Origin: Candidatus Thorarchaeota archaeon
GTDB taxonomy: Archaea > Asgardarchaeota > Thorarchaeia > Thorarchaeales > Thorarchaeaceae
Assembly: GCA_048882385.1 (NCBI GenBank)
Contig: JBHLRQ010000064.1
Location: 1-18,311, forward strand
Direction of reading: 5' to 3'
Length of the DNA: 18,311 nt
Shown here: positions 1 to 17,883 of the stretch, piece by piece
How positions within the stretch are numbered: the first letter of the stretch is position 1
Layout of the letters: each line of letters starts with the position of its first letter
Program-made: the position numbers and the translations under genes
Notes under the pieces: model-generated
What the model saw: only the letters and a program-made list of their open reading frames with translations
What the model was told of the DNA's origin: nothing
Database searches by the model: none

Positions 1-17
1 TAACCACTCAATCTCAA

Positions 18-32
18 TTTCCGTCACGGAAA
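18..32. repeat. Perfect 7-bp inverted repeat TTTCCGT-C-ACGGAAA
   Basis: Read directly from the sequence upstream of the ArsR gene; function unknown. Confidence 0.5.
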
Positions 33-47
33 GCTTTTTGTGCTATT

Positions 48-75
48 ATTTGAATGTTTGAACAACTATTCAAAT
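48..75. promoter_or_regulatory. SmtB/CzrA-type metalloregulator operator
   Basis: TTTGAA-caacta-TTCAAA (57-74) fits the TGAA-N6-TTCA core of SmtB/CzrA operators. An overlapping inverted repeat ATTTGAAT (48-55)/ATTCAAAT (68-75) is also present. The site lies about 10 nt upstream of the ArsR-family gene. Confidence 0.75.
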
Positions 76-84
76 GAGTGAGAT

Positions 85-411
85 GTGTTGACTAAATTAA
101 AACAAATTTCAGAGTCTGAGGAATTTGAGGAAACTGAAATGAGCGACATGATCAGCATCTTCAAGTCACTCTCAGATCCGTCAAGAATTCGAATCATATC
201 TGTTCTAAGCAGGCAACAAGATATGTCTGTCAGTGATATTGCGAATCATCTTGATCTTGAGATAAGTCTTGTAAGTCACCATCTCAGTACGTTGAGACTT
301 CAGGGATTCGTAAAATACCGGAAAGAAAAGAGACAGGTATTCTATAGCATTGATGATGACTGTATAATCGATATTCTACAGAGGGCAAGAGATCATGTCG
401 CAGGAAGTTAG
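85..411 (+). CDS. ArsR/SmtB-family metal-sensing transcriptional repressor
   Basis: FKSLSDPSRIRII, HTH segment SVSDIANHLDLEISLVSHHLSTLR, wing RKEKRQVFYS and an alpha5-like segment DDC...DH. Its 3' end overlaps the ATPase start. Confidence 0.93.
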   Translation: MLTKLKQISESEEFEETEMSDMISIFKSLSDPSRIRIISVLSRQQDMSVSDIANHLDLEISLVSHHLSTLRLQGFVKYRKEKRQVFYSIDDDCIIDILQRARDHVAGS

Positions 412-2305
412 TACTGATACCTGTGCATCCTGTGCAACAACTGCAGGTGTAGAGACTCAAAGATCAAAACGATACAAGTATACAATGGCAATTCTATCAG
501 CATCTACTCTAGCAATTGGCATATTATTTGAGTTACTCTCTTTTGAGGTCATCGTGCTTTATGCAATATTCATTATTTCTATGTTATCAGCGGGACAGTT
601 CATAATTCCAAGAGGTGTGAGAGGTCTCATTCATTTACACCTCGATATGCACTTTCTTATGAGTTCTGCTTCAATTGGAGCCTTCATAATTGGTGCACCT
701 GCAGAGGGGGCAGCGGTTATGTTCCTATTCTACATATCCATGCTGCTTGAGGAACGAGCAGAGGATCAAGTAAAGAGAGAGATACAGAGTCTTGTGGAAT
801 TAGAACCACAAACAGTCACAATCCGTTTGAAGGGAGCAGAAGCATGTATCCCACCAACAGAAGCACAAAGAGGAGACATTCTGATTGTGCGGCCAGGTTC
901 TAGGATTGGACTAGATGGAATAGTTGTTTCTGGTTCAACCTCTGTGAATCAAGCTCCGATAACAGGAGAATCTGTTCCTGTTTCCAAAGTGGTTGGTGAT
1001 CAGGTCTATGCTGGCACGATAAATAATGAAGGATATATTGAAGTTGAAGTCACCAATGAATCGAACGACACGGTACTCTCAAGAATCGTCACTCTAGTTG
1101 AAGAAGCAAAAAGCAAGAAAGCTCCTACTGAGAAATTAATCTCACGATTTTCGAAAGTATATACTCCTATAATGGTAATACTCACGATACTGCTTGGTTT
1201 GGTATCCTTGATTCTTGGGGCATCACTTATTGAAGCAACATATCGAGCATTGACTTTACTTGTGATCAGTTGTCCATGTGCATTTGTTGTGTCTATCCCT
1301 GTCAGCATGGTCTCTTCAATTGCTGGTTCCGCAAGAGATGGTGTTCTTGTGAAAGGAGGAATTCACATCGAACAGTTAGCAAAAACCAAAGTAGTTGCAT
1401 TTGATAAAACAGGCACTCTTACGGAAGGAGTACTATCAGTCAGTGATGTGTGTCTGCACAATGAACATACTCGATCCAAGGTCCTTTCAGTTGCCGCATC
1501 CATTGAGCAAAAGTCAGAACATCCAATTGCACGAGCCTTGGTGTCAGCTCTTGAAGAAGAAAAGATGCACATAACAGAAACTGGAGATTTTCTTGCATTT
1601 CCTGGAAAGGGAGTAGGGGGACAGATTGGGGAGAATAGATACCTTGTTGGTAATCGTCGACTTCTGGATGATGAAAAGATACCATTAGTCAGACTATCAG
1701 AACATAGCTGTGGAATTGGTACTATGGTATATGTTGCTGAAGAGTCTGAACATCTTGGAACTATTGTTTTGTCTGATACTTTGAGACCAGGATCATCTGA
1801 AGCAATACATGAGCTAAAACTGATGAATATTAACACATTCATGCTAACAGGTGACAGCAGAGATTCTGCGGAAAAAATAGCTGCAGAGATTGGAATTGAC
1901 GAGTGGCAAGCTGAACTTCTTCCTGAAGAGAAGGTCGCGACAATAGATGACCTCCGAAGAGTTGGTTCAACAATTATGGTCGGAGATGGAATCAATGATG
2001 CACCTGCATTGGCTGCAGCTAATGTTGGTGTTGCAATGGGAGCTGTTGCATCAGACGCAGCTTTAGAAACATCTGACGTAGCTCTTATGGAACAAGACCT
2101 GACGAAAATTCCAGCTTTGATAAAGAAGGCAAGAAAGACTATGTCCATCGTTCGTCAGAACATCGGACTATCGATATCCATCAAGCTCATCACAGGAATT
2201 CTCGCTGCGCTGGGTCTCGTTAATCTTTGGTTTGCAATAGGAATTGGAGACATGGGTCTAACTTTTGCTGTTATTGTGAATGCATTAAGGCTGGTTCGCA
2301 AGTAG
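395..2305 (+). CDS. zntA: P1B-2 heavy-metal (Zn/Cd/Pb) translocating P-type ATPase
   Basis: TGES, CPC, DKTGTLT, SEHP and GDGINDAPALA motifs. P1B-2 signature T-x5-QN-x7-K (TMSIVRQNIGLSISIK) and D-x-G in the last helix. Short N-terminal CASC. Confidence 0.93.
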   Translation: MSQEVSTDTCASCATTAGVETQRSKRYKYTMAILSASTLAIGILFELLSFEVIVLYAIFIISMLSAGQFIIPRGVRGLIHLHLDMHFLMSSASIGAFIIGAPAEGAAVMFLFYISMLLEERAEDQVKREIQSLVELEPQTVTIRLKGAEACIPPTEAQRGDILIVRPGSRIGLDGIVVSGSTSVNQAPITGESVPVSKVVGDQVYAGTINNEGYIEVEVTNESNDTVLSRIVTLVEEAKSKKAPTEKLISRFSKVYTPIMVILTILLGLVSLILGASLIEATYRALTLLVISCPCAFVVSIPVSMVSSIAGSARDGVLVKGGIHIEQLAKTKVVAFDKTGTLTEGVLSVSDVCLHNEHTRSKVLSVAASIEQKSEHPIARALVSALEEEKMHITETGDFLAFPGKGVGGQIGENRYLVGNRRLLDDEKIPLVRLSEHSCGIGTMVYVAEESEHLGTIVLSDTLRPGSSEAIHELKLMNINTFMLTGDSRDSAEKIAAEIGIDEWQAELLPEEKVATIDDLRRVGSTIMVGDGINDAPALAAANVGVAMGAVASDAALETSDVALMEQDLTKIPALIKKARKTMSIVRQNIGLSISIKLITGILAALGLVNLWFAIGIGDMGLTFAVIVNALRLVRK

Positions 2306-2313
2306 TTGCATTA

Positions 2314-3891
2314 TTACTTGTAAGAATTCAATGAATACACTGATGCTGCAAGAAAAACAAAGACTAGACTCAACGTGAAGATTGGAAGAACCAGAAGTAC
2401 ATAATATGTATCTGCGAGAATGGCGACAAGATATACCATTATTGTTCCTAAACTCAGGTTGATAATTGGGAAAGAAAATGCTAGAGGAACAGGAAGCGTT
2501 TGTGGATCATTTGTCATTACTGGAACATAAGAACCAATGAGATTACCAGTGGCTGTAAAAAGTAGCACAAGTGGACCAGTTAGAGTTATGATTGCTAGAT
2601 AGCCCTCAATGTGTAAAAGATATATCAAGAAACCACAGGCTGGAACAACTGTGATTACAACTTCAAAAAGGCTGAGTAGATACTTTGCTAGGATAATATC
2701 ACGAGGTCTGAATGGTGAAGCTTTCAGCAGATAGACATTTTCTCGTTCATCTGCAAAGCTAAGCATCGATGTGACACTCCCCATTTGTACAAACATAATC
2801 ATCAATAGGATAAATGCAGGTACAATAGCAAATGCAAGTCCTGATGGTATCTCAAGTGTAGGAAACCATGAAGGTCTGACTATATTAAGAAATAGAATAA
2901 ACAAGGTTCCGAAAATTGCATAGATATACTTCCATATCTGCATCGGTGATCGTAGTCGACTCCAAAAATCTTTCAACATAATCCAAATCATTGGGTCATT
3001 AAAACGTGAATTGGAAAAGTCAACTTCACCATGTATTATCCTGCTGAAACGACCTTCAGTTTGCTCCTGACCCTTTATTGCAGCAAAGATCTCATAGTAT
3101 TCATATCCTGTGAGATTTGCGACAAGAAGCAGACAGATTGCAAAGTCGTTAATTATCAAAATGACACTCCAAAAGGGATCCACTCCCTGCGCGAATAGAC
3201 CTGTAAACTCGGTTAATGTAAGAGCCAAAGCGTTTGATGGGAAAACCAAAACAGCTTGGAAATTCTCAATGAGCCAAGGAGAAGCAGGGAGCAATACAAG
3301 TAAAACCAATCCGATAACCAGAAAATGTCGTAGTGGATTAGATGTCCTTCTAGAAATCCAAAGACGGGCATATGAGCTCATTGCACCAAGTAGATAATTG
3401 ATTTCGAGAAAGAGAATGACAATCACAATGACGGTAGCTACGGTAAAGAAAAGAAATCCTGCGGAATTTAAGAGCGGAAATATTGATAGTAAACCAAGGA
3501 CAATGAAAGAGATTTTACGTAGTACCCGACGGCCATAACGGCTTAGAAAGAGTTGATGCGGTTTTACTGGCATAGACATCATAAGACTCTCATCGATATT
3601 TGTGAGGACAGCAGCAGGACCAATACCAAAGTATCCACTCACCACAGCTGTAGCGCTGAGGACAGCAATAGCAGCATAAACCATCCAAACATCAATCGTA
3701 TCTTCTAGGAGAGTACTGATTCTTCCAATTAGGGGGGTGAATGTAATAAGACTCGATATAACTGAGCTTACAAACAGGACACCAAAGAATGTGATACCAT
3801 AGAACATAAGCATACTTGGAGTTGTGAGTGCAGACCTGAACTGGTTGTACAACATTCGAAACTCATTCTTGAGAAGTTTGAATGTTGTCAT
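2314..3891 (-). CDS. ABC exporter permease (multi-pass, two ABC-2-like halves)
   Basis: Highly hydrophobic 525 aa protein with repeated permease-like motifs (LMMSMPVKPHQLFLSR and LLKASPFRPRDIILAK). Lies 10 nt downstream of the ABC ATPase on the same strand. Confidence 0.78.
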   Translation of the reverse strand: MTTFKLLKNEFRMLYNQFRSALTTPSMLMFYGITFFGVLFVSSVISSLITFTPLIGRISTLLEDTIDVWMVYAAIAVLSATAVVSGYFGIGPAAVLTNIDESLMMSMPVKPHQLFLSRYGRRVLRKISFIVLGLLSIFPLLNSAGFLFFTVATVIVIVILFLEINYLLGAMSSYARLWISRRTSNPLRHFLVIGLVLLVLLPASPWLIENFQAVLVFPSNALALTLTEFTGLFAQGVDPFWSVILIINDFAICLLLVANLTGYEYYEIFAAIKGQEQTEGRFSRIIHGEVDFSNSRFNDPMIWIMLKDFWSRLRSPMQIWKYIYAIFGTLFILFLNIVRPSWFPTLEIPSGLAFAIVPAFILLMIMFVQMGSVTSMLSFADERENVYLLKASPFRPRDIILAKYLLSLFEVVITVVPACGFLIYLLHIEGYLAIITLTGPLVLLFTATGNLIGSYVPVMTNDPQTLPVPLAFSFPIINLSLGTIMVYLVAILADTYYVLLVLPIFTLSLVFVFLAASVYSLNSYK

Positions 3892-4909: not shown

Positions 4910-5620
4910 CTATTTCTGAAAATAGTAATCAAGTTCATACGGTATCTTTCGGATAAACCTCAGATTCCAATCAACCACTTCGGTAATCAAAGGATAGATT
5001 TCAACCCCTCCAGAATGAGCTTTGCGAAGGGCATCGCCAAACAAAGGATCAGTCCTATCATTGGGAGAAAAGACAAGTGCATCAGGTCTTTGAATAACAA
5101 ATATTATCGCAGCTCTTGAAGCAGATCCATCTTTTAGTGAAGCTGCAAGGTGCATAAGATGACGAGTACCACGAATAGTAGGAGCATCAGGGAAAATAGC
5201 TCTTCCATCCTCAACAAGAGTGCAGGATTTTATCTCGATGTATGTAATTCCTTCAGGTCCTTCTAGTTTGAAGTCGAAACGCCCATCATATGCGCAGGGT
5301 TCCGAAATTACTTGATCATAGTTTGCAAAGAAAGGAAGTCTATGAGATAGGAGAAGTTTTTTGATGAATCTGTTGGGAAGATTGGAATCGATCGAAACCA
5401 ACACACCATTATATTCTATACCAATCATATCAAAGTCAGTCTTTCGATGAGGAGCCACGTTCTCTCGAAGGTAGATTTCATTTCCAGGAACCATAAACTC
5501 ATACATACGACCGGGATTAGGAATGAAAACCTCAGTTTCTTTGTTTTCAAGTTTCACTATACCTAGGAATCGATTGGGTCGTTCAATGAGAGTTGCCTTT
5601 CTGATTCTAGGATTCTCCAT
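4910..5620 (-). CDS. sfsA: DNA/RNA nuclease SfsA (sugar fermentation stimulation protein A)
   Basis: RPNRF, PNPGRM, RFDF...EIKSCTL (PD-(D/E)xK type), FPDAPTIRGTRHL and DPLFGDAL...GVEI motifs characteristic of SfsA. Confidence 0.95.
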   Translation of the reverse strand: MENPRIRKATLIERPNRFLGIVKLENKETEVFIPNPGRMYEFMVPGNEIYLRENVAPHRKTDFDMIGIEYNGVLVSIDSNLPNRFIKKLLLSHRLPFFANYDQVISEPCAYDGRFDFKLEGPEGITYIEIKSCTLVEDGRAIFPDAPTIRGTRHLMHLAASLKDGSASRAAIIFVIQRPDALVFSPNDRTDPLFGDALRKAHSGGVEIYPLITEVVDWNLRFIRKIPYELDYYFQK

Positions 5621-5766
5621 TACTGCTTGTCTCCATTTGTTTGTACACCAATTGTTCTTCTAAAATACATTCAGATGGAGGAGGTTGACGCGAAAACCTA
5701 TTACGAAAATTGAGTACATGTAACTGCTGCGAGTCGTTCTGAATTAGTTGGAAGGGAGAGGTCAAG

Positions 5767-6387
5767 TTGGAAACACGAGTCCTTCTTGTTGATGATGACA
5801 TGGAGCTCCTAGATATTGCTAGAATTCTTTTACAACAGAAGAATCCCGATTTGGAAATTGTTGTAGCCACGTCGGTGAAGGAAGCACTTGAGAAATTAGA
5901 TGATGAAACATTCGATGTGATAGTTTGTGATTTCCTCATGCCAGATTCGACAGGATTGGACCTGCTTGAAGCGCTCAGAGCCGCGGATAATAATATTGGA
6001 TTTGTAATTTGGACAGGTCACTCAAGTGAAGAAGTGGCAATTAAAGCACTAAATTTAGGCGCTGATCATTACATTCTGAAAAGTACAGACTATCGAAACC
6101 AATTTTCTACAATCAAGGACATAATTCATGAAGTTCTCCTTCATAAAGAGGACAAAGGAAAAGTTTCTCCCAAGATCACCCAAGAAGATGCAAGTAAATT
6201 CATTCACAAGCTTTCTCATGATGTTACTGGGATTGCTCATAACATCATGGGTTACGCAACACTCCTGGAGGAAGAAATCAATCCAGAATACATTCAGGGT
6301 ATCTCCCGATTGGTTTCTAAATTGAATGACAGAATCAAACGGGCTGTCACAGAAATCGATGAAGAAACACTTGTCAAAAGATCCTAG
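5767..6387 (+). CDS. Response regulator receiver domain fused to a HisKA/DHp-like helical domain, with no HATPase domain
   Basis: REC motifs LLVDDD, CDFLMP (phospho-Asp), WTG and YILK. C-terminal H-box-like FIHKLSHDVTGIAHNIMGYATLL. TTG start preceded by GGGAGAGG. Confidence 0.88.
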   Translation: METRVLLVDDDMELLDIARILLQQKNPDLEIVVATSVKEALEKLDDETFDVIVCDFLMPDSTGLDLLEALRAADNNIGFVIWTGHSSEEVAIKALNLGADHYILKSTDYRNQFSTIKDIIHEVLLHKEDKGKVSPKITQEDASKFIHKLSHDVTGIAHNIMGYATLLEEEINPEYIQGISRLVSKLNDRIKRAVTEIDEETLVKRS

Positions 6388-7657: not shown

Positions 7658-9955
7658 GTGGAAAGACAAATGGAACAAGAGGTTCAAGAGAATTCAGATA
7701 ACAAGCTTAGCCAAGAAGAAGAGGCATTCAGGTACAGAGCCATAGTCGAATCAATGAATGATGGTCTTGGTATTATCAATGATAAAGGCATTTTCACTTA
7801 TGTTAATCCAAAATTCGCTCAGATGCTTGCGTATCTGCCATCTCAAATGATTGGTAAACCACTTACAAATTTCGTTAACGAGCTAAACAAGAAAATAATT
7901 CGAGAAAACATCAGAAAGAGGTCTATGGGAGAAGCTACTCACTACGAACTTGAGTGGACCACAAGCCGAGGAGAGCAGATTCCAACAATAGTTTCAGGAG
8001 CCCCAATGATAGATGAAAAAGGGAATCACAGAGGATCATTTGCTGTCATCACTGATATCTCCGAGCTAAAAGAGTCAAGGATTGCTCTAGAAGAAAACAC
8101 AGAAATGATGCGCCGAATTTTCGAGGAGTCTCAAGTTGGAATCGAAATTTTCGATGAGAATGGAGTTCTAGTATCAATAAACCAAGCCGCGTTGGACATC
8201 TTCGGACTCTCAGATAGAGAAGACGCCATTGGCTTCAGTTTGTTCGATGACCCAAATGTTCCTAATGAAATCAAGGCAAAACTAATCCGGGGTGAAGCTG
8301 TTCACTTTGAGAATCTCTTTGACTTTGATATTGTCAAGGAATACGGATTCTATCCGTCCAGTAGAGACGGAACAGTTGTTCTTGATACATTCGCAACTCC
8401 ATTAGGACTCGAGAATGGTGGAGAACTACGTGGATATCTCATGCAAATACTTGAAAGGACTGAGGAGAGACTCACTGAAGCTGCGCTTGTAGATACTGAA
8501 CAGAAATACAAACTACTTGCAGAAAATGTGACTGATATTATCTTCACATCAGATCTCGAGCTGAATATTACGTACTTAAGTCCCTCAGTTGAGTTGTTGC
8601 TTGGATATACAGCAGATGAACTTCAGGATCAATCCATTATTGAACTTATGTCACCAGAATCAGTATGGGTTGCCATTGAAGCAGTAAAAACAGCTCTCGA
8701 AGAGGAGAAAACTGCAGACCAGACTTTAACAAGAGGAGAATCTCCCCCATTAACGATTCAATTGAAAAGAAAAGATGGATCTACAATCTGGGTCGAGGTT
8801 GCTCGTACATTCATGAGAGATGAAACCAGCAAACCAACCGGAATCTTGGGTGTCGCAAGAAATATCGAAGAACGAAGAGCTGCTGAAAAAGCACTCAGAG
8901 ATTCGGAGCTGAAATACAGGACACTAATCGACCAGTCTTTCCAAGGTTTTATGATAATTCAGGTTTTGCCATTGCAAGTCAAATTCTGCAATCCTGCTTT
9001 TGCTAATTTCCTTGAACATACAGTTGAAGAAGTGCTTGAATTCTCTTCGGCAGATATTCAAAAAATGATTCATCCTGAAGACTGGGAAGCTGTGATGGTT
9101 AGATTGCAGGAACTAATGGCTGGTGAGCCTCCAGCTGTAATTCCAATGATTATCCGAGTTTTTCAAAAAGACGGAGATATGCAGTATCTGGAAATGTTCG
9201 GAAGACGTGTTGAATTCGAAGGTAGTCCTGCCTTACAACTTGTAGCAATCAATGTCACTGAACGTTTGGATGCTGAAAGGCACATACAAACTCAGAAAGA
9301 GAGAGCAATGCTATATCTTGATCTTATGAGCCATGATTTCAGAAACCAACTACAGATTATCCTCGGAAGCACGATGGTAATGGAAGCGACTCTTCAGGAC
9401 CCAGAAGCAAGACGGTTACTAGGACAGATTGTTTCGTCAGTCGAAAGGTGTCAGAGTATGATATCAAAGGTGAAAGTAACCGAACCTCTAATGTCGGTTC
9501 CATTGAGACCACGAAATCTGAATCAGGCAATTGATGCACTGGTTAAGTCTCAAATGAGCCAACACAGAGATGTTTCGTTTGACGCTAATTTGATTCCGAT
9601 GGATGCTATTGTTGATGCAGACCAATTTCTTGAACAGTTGATCGATAATCTCATAGAAAATGCGATTCAACACAATCCTCGGTCAGAGAGAAAAGTCTGG
9701 ATTAAACTGATTGAAAGTGGCGATGGATATGAGATATCTATTGGAGACAATGGTCACGGAATCTCAAGTTCATTGAAAAGCGCAATATTTGACATTTCTA
9801 GAAGATATGGAGGAGTAGGGTTGCATCAGGCTAAGCAGATATGTGACAAATATGGCGGACGCATTGACACAAGAGACCGTGTGCCAGGAAAGCCGAACCA
9901 AGGAGTGGAATTTGTGATTTGGCTTCCTAAAACAAGAGAATCAAATGGAACGTAG
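7658..9955 (+). CDS. Soluble sensor histidine kinase with four PAS domains, HisKA and HATPase
   Basis: Four PAS repeats, intact H-box MSHDFRN (His codon 9332-9334), N-box NLIENAIQH, G1 DNGHG and G2 GVGL. No transmembrane helices. The start may be ATG 7670. Confidence 0.93.
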   Translation: MERQMEQEVQENSDNKLSQEEEAFRYRAIVESMNDGLGIINDKGIFTYVNPKFAQMLAYLPSQMIGKPLTNFVNELNKKIIRENIRKRSMGEATHYELEWTTSRGEQIPTIVSGAPMIDEKGNHRGSFAVITDISELKESRIALEENTEMMRRIFEESQVGIEIFDENGVLVSINQAALDIFGLSDREDAIGFSLFDDPNVPNEIKAKLIRGEAVHFENLFDFDIVKEYGFYPSSRDGTVVLDTFATPLGLENGGELRGYLMQILERTEERLTEAALVDTEQKYKLLAENVTDIIFTSDLELNITYLSPSVELLLGYTADELQDQSIIELMSPESVWVAIEAVKTALEEEKTADQTLTRGESPPLTIQLKRKDGSTIWVEVARTFMRDETSKPTGILGVARNIEERRAAEKALRDSELKYRTLIDQSFQGFMIIQVLPLQVKFCNPAFANFLEHTVEEVLEFSSADIQKMIHPEDWEAVMVRLQELMAGEPPAVIPMIIRVFQKDGDMQYLEMFGRRVEFEGSPALQLVAINVTERLDAERHIQTQKERAMLYLDLMSHDFRNQLQIILGSTMVMEATLQDPEARRLLGQIVSSVERCQSMISKVKVTEPLMSVPLRPRNLNQAIDALVKSQMSQHRDVSFDANLIPMDAIVDADQFLEQLIDNLIENAIQHNPRSERKVWIKLIESGDGYEISIGDNGHGISSSLKSAIFDISRRYGGVGLHQAKQICDKYGGRIDTRDRVPGKPNQGVEFVIWLPKTRESNGT

Positions 9956-13962: not shown

Positions 13963-15108
13963 CTAATGTCTTCTCAGTCTTCGAAATTGCGACATAATCA
14001 TGTATGTTATTGGCACCTTGATTCCTGGTTCCATTTGTGGTGGAGGTGGCTTCTCTGATTCATACCACATTTTATGTTCTTCATCATCCCAAATCTCCTC
14101 TGTAAGGGGAGGACTTTTGTCACGCCACACATATAGAAAACCCAACAGTGCAAAAGCTGGAACCGGTGTTACTGCTATATAGTATCCTGTGGTGACCCAT
14201 CCAAATATCGACATTAATGCCACTGGTGCAATTTCTACAAGTAGCCCAACTGAGATTAATCTGGATTTTGGAATTCTTCTATCCTTGAATCGATAGATAT
14301 CTCTAACAAAGAAATATCTTAGAGAGAAAATCAAAGCTATGACAGGCAAAATGTACATAGGAATGATTGTTAGAGTAACGGTAGAGTAAGGAAACGGAAG
14401 AATAGCTTCTCTTATCAAAAAGTTTGTGTAGACTATTGCACTATAGAGCGGTGAGATGAAGTCCAAACTCCAATATTGGTAATTCATTATTGGAGAAAGT
14501 AGTAAACCAAACCATAGTATCAAAGGTAGGAATCTTTGTTTACCAATCTGGTCTTTGAAAACCCTCGACAAATAGGAATAAGAAAGAGTTCTCTGATTAA
14601 GGGGAACACTCCGAATTACTAGTTCTCGTTTAAGTATTGGCCAAATAATAAAAAGTGGAATTGCCAGAGTCGGTACTGAATTCATAGCGTTGGAGGTTAT
14701 TTCAAAATACATGTACGGATCAACAACACCAGGCATGAAAGCTATGATATAAATGAGAAATGAACTTCCAAATGAGAAAAGCCACGTTCCGACAGCAGAG
14801 GCAATAGCTTTTCTTTTCATTGAAGAAGATATTGGTGCTGCTTTGATTTTCCTGTCAAAATAGATAGCTGGAAGCATCAGGAAAATGGCAAATATTATTG
14901 AGAATGTTGGAATATGCCAATCGAATTGGATAGGACTAGATTGAAGGGAAAAGCTGAAAGAAAGAGACGTCCATATTAATAGAAAGAAGCTGCTTGATGT
15001 CCAGACTCCTCCTGTATCCAATATGAGATACAATGGAAATATGAGTAGGATGATCATTTTAAGAATAGTACCTCTCCAACTCACTTTTTCGAATGTATCT
15101 TCGATCAT
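13963..15108 (-). CDS. Hypothetical multi-pass membrane protein
   Basis: 381 aa ORF with about 9-10 hydrophobic segments and a soluble acidic, Pro-rich tail. It fills the gap between eutA and mscS. I recognise no family. Confidence 0.75.
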   Translation of the reverse strand: MIEDTFEKVSWRGTILKMIILLIFPLYLILDTGGVWTSSSFFLLIWTSLSFSFSLQSSPIQFDWHIPTFSIIFAIFLMLPAIYFDRKIKAAPISSSMKRKAIASAVGTWLFSFGSSFLIYIIAFMPGVVDPYMYFEITSNAMNSVPTLAIPLFIIWPILKRELVIRSVPLNQRTLSYSYLSRVFKDQIGKQRFLPLILWFGLLLSPIMNYQYWSLDFISPLYSAIVYTNFLIREAILPFPYSTVTLTIIPMYILPVIALIFSLRYFFVRDIYRFKDRRIPKSRLISVGLLVEIAPVALMSIFGWVTTGYYIAVTPVPAFALLGFLYVWRDKSPPLTEEIWDDEEHKMWYESEKPPPPQMEPGIKVPITYMIMSQFRRLRRH

Positions 15109-16143: not shown

Positions 16144-17883
16144 TCATCCAGAGGTAAGTAGCATAGTTGAAACTGCTACTCGAAGATCATCATCTGCCAC
16201 AAACCCTGCTAGGCGTTCTTTGCCAAGATGAATTGTAGGTAGTGCAGGTAAATCATCTTCTGTCACATCAGAATTGGGATCATCAACATTCCTTAGCTCA
16301 ATTACTGACTGGCTTATCCCCAATTCCCTTAGAATCATTGTCAGGGAATCATAGACTGGTCCACAAAAGACACAGTGGTCTGATTTATAGAAGACTATTG
16401 GCGGAACTTTTAGCTGCTCCTTCCACGCAGGAATAAGAAGAACAAACTTACTTCCCTTTGAAGGATCGGATTTGATTCTGTTCTCGACCCACACCCTCCC
16501 TCCAAGATCCTCAATATATCGGTCCACTACTGTAAGCCCAAGTCCCTTTCCAGCAAACTGCTCTTCAGGACCTCCGGTTCTTCTGAATATTTGGTCCTTA
16601 AGTTCATCCGGAATGGCTGGACCATAATCTAGAAACTCAATACGAACCATGTCACCATCTTCAGTCATATCAGCGTTGATGTCGATCCTGACTGTTGAAC
16701 TTGAATCTGCACTTGCTGAATAGTGAATTATATTGAAAAATAAATACCAAAGGAAAGCATGGCCCACAACATCAAATGATTGCTCGGAAATATTCGAATT
16801 AATTTCGAGAGTCTTCCATTCAAAATCACGAGTGGCTTCACGTACAGCTTTATTGAAGTGAGGTTGGAGGCGAGTCAAAACCTTGTCAGGGGGATTTTGT
16901 CCCAATGAAATTAGGACACCCATATTTGCTATCATCCTACCCGCACTACGAACACTCCATGCAGTCTCACTGACAACTCCCTGAAGACGCTCAGGTAGGT
17001 CAAGTGAGATACTCAGATCCTCCATTGCAAAGAGCACATTCTGATTTGTCATGTTCAAATCACTGCTCATTACTTCCATGTACAGATTCGCTCTTTGACT
17101 TTCTACTCGCAGTCTCTCCTCGAAGTTACGTCTACTCGTTACATCAAAGGCAGTAATGCCTATTTCATCAGGTTTCTCAGTCCCAGAAACAAGAGCGCGT
17201 GAAGAAATGTTAACCCAGATTAGTTTCCCGTCACTACGCTTCATCTGAATCTCAAGCCCCGTAACTGGATTACCACGAAGAACCTCTTTTACAATATCGG
17301 CACCTGGATCATAGCGTGGTTCAGGTTCAGGGAGATACATGGAGAGTGACTGACCTATGAGACTATCTGCTTCACTTCCAAGCAAATTCTCAGCTGCTTC
17401 ATTCACCTGCTCTATCATACCATTTCGATTAAGTGTGAAATATGCGACCGGAGACATATCGTATAGTGTGGCAAAACGGTTTTCCAATTCAGAAACGGCG
17501 GCCTCTAGTTCCATCTGAGAAGTGACATTCCTGATCGTTGCAATGACAGCTGGTTCTCCTTCAAGCTCAATTTTAGTTGGAGTTATTTCTACATGCAGAA
17601 CGTTGCCATCCTTGGCAGCAAGACGTGTGATAAACCGTTCAGGATTGCTTCCTCTAACAAGAGCTTCAATTAGATCCTTGTCACGATTTTGTGATTTTCG
17701 GTCAACAAGGTCTTCGAATCCTGTGTCCAACAAACCATCTCGTTCATAGCCTAACATGTCTGAAAAAGCACTGTTAGTCAAGATGATGTCTTCATCCTGA
17801 ATAACAACAAACCCATCACGCACTACTTCCATCACTTTGTGTAGCCATGAAGAGTTTGCTTTTTTGTCTGTCACAGACCGCAC
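16144..17883 (-). CDS. 2xPAS + degenerate HisKA (His to Ser) + degenerate HATPase + C-terminal CxxC thioredoxin-like domain
   Basis: Two PAS domains, H-box position MSSDL, N-box NIIHYSA, G1 DYGPA and G2 GKGLGL. Tail VFYKSDHCVFCGPV...LPALPTI is thioredoxin/glutaredoxin-like. Confidence 0.88.
   Translation of the reverse strand: MRSVTDKKANSSWLHKVMEVVRDGFVVIQDEDIILTNSAFSDMLGYERDGLLDTGFEDLVDRKSQNRDKDLIEALVRGSNPERFITRLAAKDGNVLHVEITPTKIELEGEPAVIATIRNVTSQMELEAAVSELENRFATLYDMSPVAYFTLNRNGMIEQVNEAAENLLGSEADSLIGQSLSMYLPEPEPRYDPGADIVKEVLRGNPVTGLEIQMKRSDGKLIWVNISSRALVSGTEKPDEIGITAFDVTSRRNFEERLRVESQRANLYMEVMSSDLNMTNQNVLFAMEDLSISLDLPERLQGVVSETAWSVRSAGRMIANMGVLISLGQNPPDKVLTRLQPHFNKAVREATRDFEWKTLEINSNISEQSFDVVGHAFLWYLFFNIIHYSASADSSSTVRIDINADMTEDGDMVRIEFLDYGPAIPDELKDQIFRRTGGPEEQFAGKGLGLTVVDRYIEDLGGRVWVENRIKSDPSKGSKFVLLIPAWKEQLKVPPIVFYKSDHCVFCGPVYDSLTMILRELGISQSVIELRNVDDPNSDVTEDDLPALPTIHLGKERLAGFVADDDLRVAVSTMLLTSG

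Follow-up and report, generated by a model that had tools for sequence, protein, structure and literature searches.

The gene described here lies on the minus strand at positions 16144..17883 of contig JBHLRQ010000064.1 (assembly GCA_048882385.1) from a Candidatus Thorarchaeota archaeon; the whole stretch of 18,311 nucleotides is referred to below as the window. The open reading frame (ORF) begins with a GTG start and encodes 579 amino acids (aa) plus stop. Its product (P0001) is a PAS-PAS-DHp-CA-thioredoxin-fold protein, in which DHp is the dimerization and histidine phosphotransfer region and CA the catalytic and ATP-binding region of a histidine kinase. Key residues for phosphotransfer have been replaced, and a CxxC motif at the C-terminus is invariant across the family. 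The most probable reading, to which we assign a probability of roughly 0.55, is that of a PAS-regulated histidine pseudokinase that arose by kinase duplication and in which the CxxC thioredoxin domain is the remaining active element.

Kinase motifs lost and retained

The reading frame is intact over its 579 residues, with no internal stop. Two PAS domains and HATPase_c were recognized by Pfam, in agreement with the PAS-PAS and HATPase layout given in an initial annotation made from the letters of the window. The second PAS domain is followed by a predicted DHp-like helical hairpin (residues 251-332, 16888..17133), for which the AlphaFold2 (AF2) model has helices at 249-293 and 298-329. The CA domain, partly degenerate, occupies residues 333-488 (16420..16887); within it, the Pfam HATPase_c match at 381-486 has an E-value (E) of 5.3e-14 and scores 53.1 bits against a cut-off of 26.4.

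The DNA of the H-box (aga gcg aat ctg tac atg gaa gta atg agc agt gat ttg aac) reads RANLYMEVMSSDLN. The phospho-accepting His is replaced by Ser274 (AGT, 17062..17064), as had been proposed. At the corresponding place the other kinase of the window (7658-9955) has RAMLYLDLMSHDF, and its His559 falls within the stretch matched by Pfam HisKA (557-605). Ser274 was aligned both to this His559 and to the His in 56 of 56 rows of a His-bearing paralog described below. Pfam HisKA gave no match in the pseudokinase, nor in the paralog.

In histidine kinases the Asn of the N-box holds Mg-ATP and the Asp of the G1 box contacts adenine. The N-box of the pseudokinase is FFNIIHYSA, compared with IDNLIENAI in the 7658-9955 kinase, and Tyr388 (16720..16722) stands at the position of the Mg/ATP Asn. 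The G1 box, D419-Y-G-P-A423 (16615..16629), has the Asp that is invariant across the family and an Ala for the second Gly; in the small clade to which the window protein belongs, G1 is DxGPA or DRAPA. The G2 box, G445-K-G-L-G-L450 (16534..16551), and the F-box (IFRR) are kept. Alignment to the 7658-9955 kinase thus reproduced the annotated state of the N-box, G1, and G2. Conservation of the G1 Asp, the F-box, and G2 reaches 0.9 or more in each subgroup, and the CA positions conserved to at least 0.9 in all three groups are D419, K429, F433, R435, G447, L448, L450, and T451. The annotated loss of the Mg/ATP Asn is correct; however, the pocket is only partly degraded, and among the 58 His-less copies that cover the N-box position the residue is N in 30, Y in 24, F in 2, S in 1, and H in 1. 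The retained adenine pocket may bind a nucleotide as an allosteric ligand. From the motif losses we infer that the protein would neither autophosphorylate nor transfer phosphate.

The C-terminal thioredoxin-fold domain

The tail comprises 85 residues (495-579, 16147..16401). Both motifs on which the initial annotation of this domain rested, CVFC-GP at 16363-16374 and LPALPT at residues 545-550, were read in the DNA and its translation. The CxxC motif, C504-V-F-C507 (16363..16374), lies at the N-terminus of helix alpha1 and is preceded by the invariant His503; the surrounding DNA, aaa tca gac cac tgt gtc ttt tgt gga cca, encodes KSDHCVFCGP. C504 and C507 are the only cysteines among the 579 residues. 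In the second motif, L545-P-A-L-P549-T (16234..16251), Pro549 directly precedes strand beta3, which is the cis-Pro position of thioredoxins. The elements of the tail are beta1 496-500, alpha1 507-520, beta2 528-532, beta3 550-553, beta4 556-559, and alpha2 564-578.

A tail-only AF2 model, built on a 44-sequence tail alignment (A2), has a predicted local distance difference test (pLDDT) value of 87.5, a predicted template modeling (pTM) score of 0.78, and a beta-alpha-beta-beta-beta-alpha topology. In the numbering of this model the elements are a strand at 13-17, a helix at 24-37, a strand at 45-49, strands at 67-70 and 73-76, and a helix at 81-94. C504 and C507 are model residues 21 and 24, after strand 1 and at the start of helix 1, and the family-invariant Pro549 is residue 66, adjoining strand 3 of the predicted model. 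Foldseek against the PDB returned, among the matches listed (ranks 1-50), almost exclusively thioredoxins and thioredoxin fusion tags, with E from 6.6e-4 and template modeling (TM) scores up to 0.69. The structural comparison VIA gave Z of at least 8 for 248 chains, including the Thermus thioredoxin 1v98_A (Z 10.1, root mean square deviation 2.6 A over 86 residues). The A2 profile matched the thioredoxins 6mos_A (E 8.2e-4) and 1fo5_A (E 5.6e-3, residues 5-83 of 85) in the PDB, with the CxxC and the Pro in register and Pro549 opposite the Pro of 'AVPTI' in 1fo5. An ESM Atlas feature search returned Trx/Grx clusters at 0.88-0.89, which are leads only. By its predicted structure the tail is a thioredoxin fold, on which the AF2 model, Foldseek, and VIA agree, as the annotation had expected. 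The small archaeal and bacterial thioredoxins such as 1fo5_A (85 aa) and 6mos_A share with the tail a minimal fold and the CxxC and Pro before beta3 in register; they differ in being stand-alone, in carrying CPHC and CSVC instead of CVFC, and in having no conserved His before the first Cys. The tail may be redox active.

A His-bearing paralog in the same genome

When the archaeon's own genome was searched with the tail profile, six places were found: the window gene, a 590-aa ORF on contig C142, and four small stand-alone ORFs (115-139 aa). The 590-aa protein (P0122) is 40% identical to the pseudokinase over 568 residues. It has the same PAS-PAS-DHp-CA-thioredoxin layout, the same H-C-x-F-C and Pro motifs, and the same flanks of the H-box, which are near-identical in His and His-less types (RANLY.EVM..DLN). 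It differs in having kept the His (H-box RANLYLEVMTHDLN), the N-box Asn (FNLLHNAM), a DxGPG-type G1 (DHGPG), and G2 as GRGLGL, and in four extra tail Cys, so that the tail holds six (HCGQKTC ... HCVFC ... KIC ... NCYP). By these motifs P0122 looks like a competent kinase. The annotated fusion architecture is thus present in the pseudokinase, but it is not peculiar to it. Since a His-bearing kinase with the same layout is found in the same genome and in most relatives, the fusion is older than the His loss.

When P0122 served as the query across the class, 80 of 87 genomes gave a match at E up to 1e-40; among the 24 genomes of high quality, 23 did so. Copies were classified by alignment (n = 130; 30 loci and 100 regions). 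Fetched copies came from 76 genomes: 50 hold both types, 17 the His type only, and 9 the His-less type only. None of these nine reaches both 90% completeness and contamination of 5% or less, and one of them (G076) holds an unclassified fragment. Residue 274 is S in 45 of the 59 His-less copies, Q in 7, N in 4, and K, T, and R in one each. The N-box Asn is present in all His-bearing copies that cover it (65/65, and locus L106), and CxxC in all 125 covering rows of classified copies. A 146-aa antisense ORF with 'SDHCLFC' in L106 was rejected as a chance match, being contained within the real gene on the opposite strand. Within the window's genus, genes of both types are often found on a single contig, in the same orientation and separated by 17-20 kb (e.g., G033:C68, G041:C431, G032:C41); linked in this way, they are not co-transcribed.

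Shorter His-bearing versions were identified in five genomes (L127, L130, L133, L135, and L155 in G017, G010, G019, G016, and G015, respectively). Their frames of 477-505 aa match only about residues 122-588 of the paralog, i.e., one PAS domain fewer and the same six-Cys tail. Three library representatives (P0123, P0127, P0129; 453-472 aa) look like versions of this kind.

Convergent to the paralog gene in its own locus (L065, G000:C142) are three ORFs, 235-537(-), 647-1048(+), and 1063-1425(+), which by eye are TusA-like, small and hydrophobic (membrane-like), and DsrE-like. By tblastn across 30 paralog loci, the DsrE-like ORF was found in 23 and the TusA-like ORF in 18, nearly all in the window's genus, plus L096. 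These neighbors may belong to sulfur or thiol metabolism; the loci are close kin.

Order of the losses

In a 76-row tree rooted on the other kinase of the window, the His-less clade is nested within the His-bearing diversity; the outgroup and L055 form long branches in this tree, and its root was not relied on. A 109-row tree was built without the trait columns. Here the His state undergoes a single change, and one branch, with a Shimodaira-Hasegawa-like approximate likelihood ratio test (SH-aLRT) value of 99.9, separates the 53 His-less rows from all others. Only four combinations of traits occur on the tree: His, the four accessory tail Cys, and Asn all present (56 rows); His absent with Cys and Asn present (16); His and Cys absent with Asn present (12); and all three absent (25). 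The losses are thus nested, with His lost first, the four Cys next, and the N-box Asn last.

The H-C-x-x-C motif and the cis-Pro position are unchanged throughout this series, and the conservation of H503, C504, C507, P509, and P549 is 0.96 or higher in each of the three groups. The four accessory Cys behaved as one unit in evolution, and they suggest a metal or Fe-S site or structural disulfides. Near the His, DHp columns 278, 289, 313, and 322 show conservation in the His clade, whereas the His-less clade has them relaxed or changed, which fits a lost phosphotransfer surface. Columns in which both clades conserve an identical residue make up the largest share in the DHp region (21/82, compared with 6/100 in PAS1).

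Family conservation and selection

A word-index search gave more than 120 full-length clusters of 50-86% identity and about 562-614 aa; those carrying a name are all from Thorarchaeota or Asgard metagenome-assembled genomes. In a scan of species genomes, relatives were found at 56 loci (L001-L056), besides 7 spurious PAS matches. The extracted family rows number 53, i.e., the window gene and 52 loci from other species genomes. Recurrence of the arrangement on this scale goes far beyond what chance would produce. H-C-[VI]-F-C is present in 53 of these 53 rows, and the H-box column is without His in 49 of the 50 rows that cover it; the exception, L055, is the most divergent (30% identity). The pairing of a missing His with a conserved CxxC, which had been suggested as a check on the annotation, is thus found across the orthologs.

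The ratio of nonsynonymous to synonymous substitution rates (dN/dS) was 0.05-0.15 in 7 of 12 pairs (whole-gene dS <1) and unusable for the other 5, in which synonymous sites are saturated. For the CA domain it was 0.05-0.22 where dS was <1. The degenerate DHp and CA domains are constrained as strongly as the rest of the gene, and the mean column conservation of the His-less clade equals that of the His-bearing clade in every domain. Simple decay, which the annotation had doubted on the basis of the intact frame, is contradicted by the low dN/dS. The contiguous fusion ORF is present on dozens of independent contigs and assemblies and is thus no assembly artifact. Four matches have one in-frame stop: G029:C54:7668-9389 (TGA), G034:C41:658-2364 (TGA), G015:C58:3425-5113 (TAA), and G051:C83:10139-10744 (TGA). 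Sequencing errors, broken copies, or effects of the start region could account for these stops; long frames extracted from three of the four have all motifs present.

Proposed mechanism and alternatives

Under the reading favored here, a working PAS-PAS-DHp-CA-thioredoxin kinase would have been duplicated, the progenitor type being still encoded in the same genome. One copy would have lost the His, later the four tail Cys, and later the Mg/ATP Asn, and with them phosphotransfer. All five domains, including the H-C-x-x-C and cis-Pro active site, would have stayed under strong purifying selection. A cytoplasmic cue sensed by the PAS domains would reach the CxxC domain by way of the DHp/CA scaffold, or the signal would run in the reverse direction. 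In place of phosphotransfer, the output or a second input would be thiol-disulfide chemistry, either as a redox switch or as an exchange of disulfides with a target. The tail could then sense redox state and, on switching, reset the PAS/DHp/CA scaffold, or it could be an effector whose disulfide exchange with a target is under PAS control. The thioredoxin domain is taken as the working end because H-C-x-x-C with cis-Pro is the only invariant chemically reactive motif. The protein would be soluble, and no membrane-like hydropathy was found among its 19-residue windows (maximum 1.18). By analogy with established histidine kinase and GHKL biology, it is probably dimeric via the DHp bundle. It is plausible that it shares a pathway with the live paralog via heterodimers or competition. 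A more specific form of this proposal, which we put forward only tentatively, takes disulfide exchange as the output, with the dead kinase chassis gating the thioredoxin site in a 'redox relay' beside the ancestral phosphorelay of the paralog. The stepwise losses of His, Cys, and Asn would then record a hand-over from phosphate to thiol chemistry. In a variant, the two CxxC tails of a dimer would jointly hold a metal or Fe-S centre.

Several points weigh against the pseudokinase reading with a working thioredoxin end. The genomes are close kin, and the counts describe clades, not independent events. In a HMMER alignment to ThkA (3a0r), the ThkA His falls at column 278, four residues after 274. 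The pseudokinase has Met278 in this alternative register of the H-box, and there is no His at column 274 or 278 in it or in the 29 family members of alignment A1. The ATP pocket is largely intact in sequence, so nucleotide binding may persist. Given the nine genomes with only His-less copies, a partnership with the paralog may not be obligate. A conserved operon partner was not found across the 52 loci, in a comparison that excluded the REC gene of the window (5767-6387). The full-length AF2 model has a pTM of 0.44, a low value for placing the tail against the kinase core. The placement of the tail among the thioredoxins comes from a weak PDB profile match and a predicted fold: Pfam at E up to 10 gave no family on the 97-aa tail, and NCBIfam gave one spurious match (0.028) and no thioredoxin family. 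In the VIA comparison fold-switched KaiB (5jyt, Z 9.2) is within tie range of thioredoxins, and KaiB-RS (8fwj_M) has Z 8.9. Judged from the modeled structure alone, a KaiB/SasA-like docking role would be compatible with the tail.

Such a role is one of the alternatives considered, in which the tail would be a docking module, for example for a KaiC-like ATPase, and the CxxC would be structural or metal-binding. To our knowledge, KaiB and SasA are without the CxxC/cis-Pro redox signature. The near-thioredoxin scores of the two KaiB chains speak for docking, and so does SasA, which is reported to bind KaiC via its N-terminal thioredoxin-like domain (10.1101/2020.06.17.158394). A small tail relative directly upstream of ORFs that by eye are KaiC/RecA-like (L068, below) also fits. 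Against these stand the two elements of a redox signature, the unvarying H-C-x-x-C that opens alpha1 and the Pro that precedes beta3; sequence-profile matches were to thioredoxins and not to KaiB, Pfam KaiB had no match on the tail at E 10, and no KaiC-like gene is present in the window. We regard the docking role as unlikely. A partner or inhibitor function toward the live paralog, through DHp heterodimers or competition for partners, overlaps with the favored reading and is possible, though less probable. In the intermediate clade, which has kept Asn, G1, and G2, the CA domain of the dead subunit could phosphorylate the partner His in trans. The two types occur together in 50 of 76 genomes, in the window's genus their genes often share a contig at a distance of 17-20 kb, the flanks of the H-box are near-identical, and DHp has the highest share of same-residue columns; DivL, reported to be a PAS-rich pseudokinase acting on an active kinase, is a precedent (10.1101/812529). 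However, only the His-less type was found in 9 genomes and only the His type in 17, DHp columns 278, 289, 313, and 322 differ between the clades, and the two genes are not in one operon.

GHKL domains are also found in anti-sigma Ser kinases and mitochondrial PDK-type enzymes, which phosphorylate Ser or Thr. The pseudokinase might accordingly be a kinase of another type, acting on its own Ser274 or on a partner. HATPase_c is recognizable, the G1 Asp, F-box, and G2 are conserved, and Ser is the commonest residue at 274; with Q, N, K, T, or R in the remaining His-less copies, however, 274 is not a conserved acceptor. The Mg-binding Asn is absent from the window protein and from 28 of the 58 covering His-less copies, and G1 in its small clade is DxGPA or DRAPA. 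We regard Ser/Thr phosphorylation as very unlikely. The lost catalytic residues would also fit a decaying pseudogene or an assembly chimera; the intact 579-aa frame, the low dN/dS, a conservation equal to that of the active paralog, and the contiguous ORF on dozens of independent contigs and assemblies reduce the likelihood of either to practically nil.

Relation to known systems

We know of only a few cases of histidine pseudokinases, from bacteria. In DivL the phospho-His is replaced by Tyr. This Caulobacter crescentus protein is reported to be a PAS-rich, histidine-kinase-like pseudokinase that modulates an active kinase and signals without phosphorylation of its own (10.1101/812529), features shared with the reading proposed here. 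It differs in being bacterial and in having no thioredoxin-fold domain, and the likeness is one of description and not of sequence. SasA of Synechococcus elongatus likewise joins a histidine kinase to a thioredoxin-like fold (10.1101/2020.06.17.158394). Its fold, however, is N-terminal, its kinase is active, and it binds KaiC, whereas the archaeal domain is C-terminal and has the invariant CxxC and cis-Pro position. PsmA of Streptomyces venezuelae is also described as a histidine-kinase-like pseudokinase (PMC12963549); it is a hybrid-type bacterial protein of polar growth, likened here by description only, and the opening of its abstract names no thioredoxin domain. Of the systems compared, DivL and SasA are the nearest characterized analogies.

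Full-text literature searches, judged by titles and abstract openings, returned no fusion of a histidine-kinase core to a CxxC thioredoxin fold. The passages on thioredoxin in a 2018 census of archaeal two-component systems (PMC5847659) do not contain it either; there 'thioredoxin' refers to REC-thioredoxin-reductase fusions, and the supplementary tables could list such proteins. New here is a histidine pseudokinase fused to a redox-type thioredoxin fold and paired with a live paralog. The family is archaeal, it is present in most genomes of one Asgard lineage with the live, ancestor-like paralog alongside, and it documents in a clear order the catalytic parts that were discarded and those that persisted. 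Should the CxxC prove to be the working part, PAS sensing would be tied directly to thiol redox chemistry in anaerobic sediment archaea. The live/dead pair would be a natural system for asking what a kinase scaffold does after the loss of phosphotransfer.

N-terminal region and PAS domains

Three starts are possible for the pseudokinase ORF: GTG at 17883, GTG at 17874 (the 576-aa database form), and ATG at 17832 (the 562-aa forms). Residues 1-20 are poorly conserved. PAS domain 1 covers about residues 21-120 (17524..17823; Pfam PAS_3 at 34-111). It resembles light-oxygen-voltage (LOV) domains in sequence, and a PDB profile matches LOV proteins over residues 7-133. LOV-type photochemistry was considered and rejected: the LOV Cys motif 'NCRFLQ' aligns to the Cys-free 'iafedl', and no Cys lies outside the tail. 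PAS domain 2 covers about residues 136-250 (17134..17478; Pfam PAS_9 at 145-249, E 1.7e-23).

Distribution of the tail domain

The tail profile was searched against 301 Asgard genomes. All 76 sampled genomes of one family (f1) match, and the best 150 places listed are all in f1, about 110 of them in frames of about 450-640 aa. Outside f1 the best E was 2.8e-14 or weaker; the stand-alone 110-aa proteins listed within f1 match more strongly, at E 1e-21 to 1e-16. In a library of 1.84 billion representatives, 108 proteins reach E 1e-3 with the tail profile. Thirteen of these are at least 450 aa long with the domain at the C-terminus, and all five that were scanned have PAS and HATPase_c. Most of the remaining proteins are stand-alone (about 105-120 aa), for which Pfam gives no match or weak Trx/Grx matches (E 3e-4 to 5e-3) below cut-offs.

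Two stand-alone relatives of about 100-115 aa, L066 1465-1812(+) and L067 1483-1827(-), match at E 1e-20 and 3.8e-13, respectively. They have extra Cys as in the paralog tail (PCGRxxC before strand 1, RIC/RVC after strand 3, and C near the end) and further CGC-type pairs. In L068 a small CxxC thioredoxin-like ORF, 1462-1830(-) (SDSCAFC), is directly upstream of ORFs 719-1528(-) and 2-715(-), in which KaiC/RecA-like Walker motifs were recognized by eye. It could represent a KaiB-like/KaiC-like pairing in this archaeon. A related thioredoxin-type domain is also carried by other signaling proteins of the library, in the arrangements PAS-Trx-...-HATPase_c (P0194, 660 aa), PAS-Trx-PAS (P0229, 334 aa), Thioredoxin_3 with an Arf-family GTPase (P0199, 306 aa), and Thioredoxin_3 with V4R (P0215, 485 aa). 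P0145 (369 aa) is an unusual protein in which an NADH_4Fe-4S fragment (1-39) is followed by HATPase_c (47-154) and by the first part of the tail domain (148-213); a chimeric or frameshifted gene call may explain it.

Gene neighborhood

Across the 52 loci a radical-SAM gene is divergent upstream in 10 and an MscS-like channel gene convergent downstream in 14, all close kin. A census of the own genome gave 9 REC and 18 HATPase_c matches. None is adjacent to the pseudokinase, and the nearest REC ORF is about 10 kb away. The window holds a 206-aa response-regulator ORF (5767-6387(+); REC at 5-110, followed by about 95 residues without a family), which overlaps a 110-aa minus-strand ORF (5607-5939) without a family. 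Between it and the intact triple-PAS HisKA kinase (7658-9955(+)) lies a Y-family DNA polymerase gene on the other strand. Two further ORFs of the window, 13963-15108(-) (381 aa) and 2314-3891(-) (525 aa), could be assigned to no Pfam family at an E of 1e-3 or lower. Counterparts of the 381-aa ORF with weak similarity (22-44% identity) occupy the equivalent position in 15 related loci.

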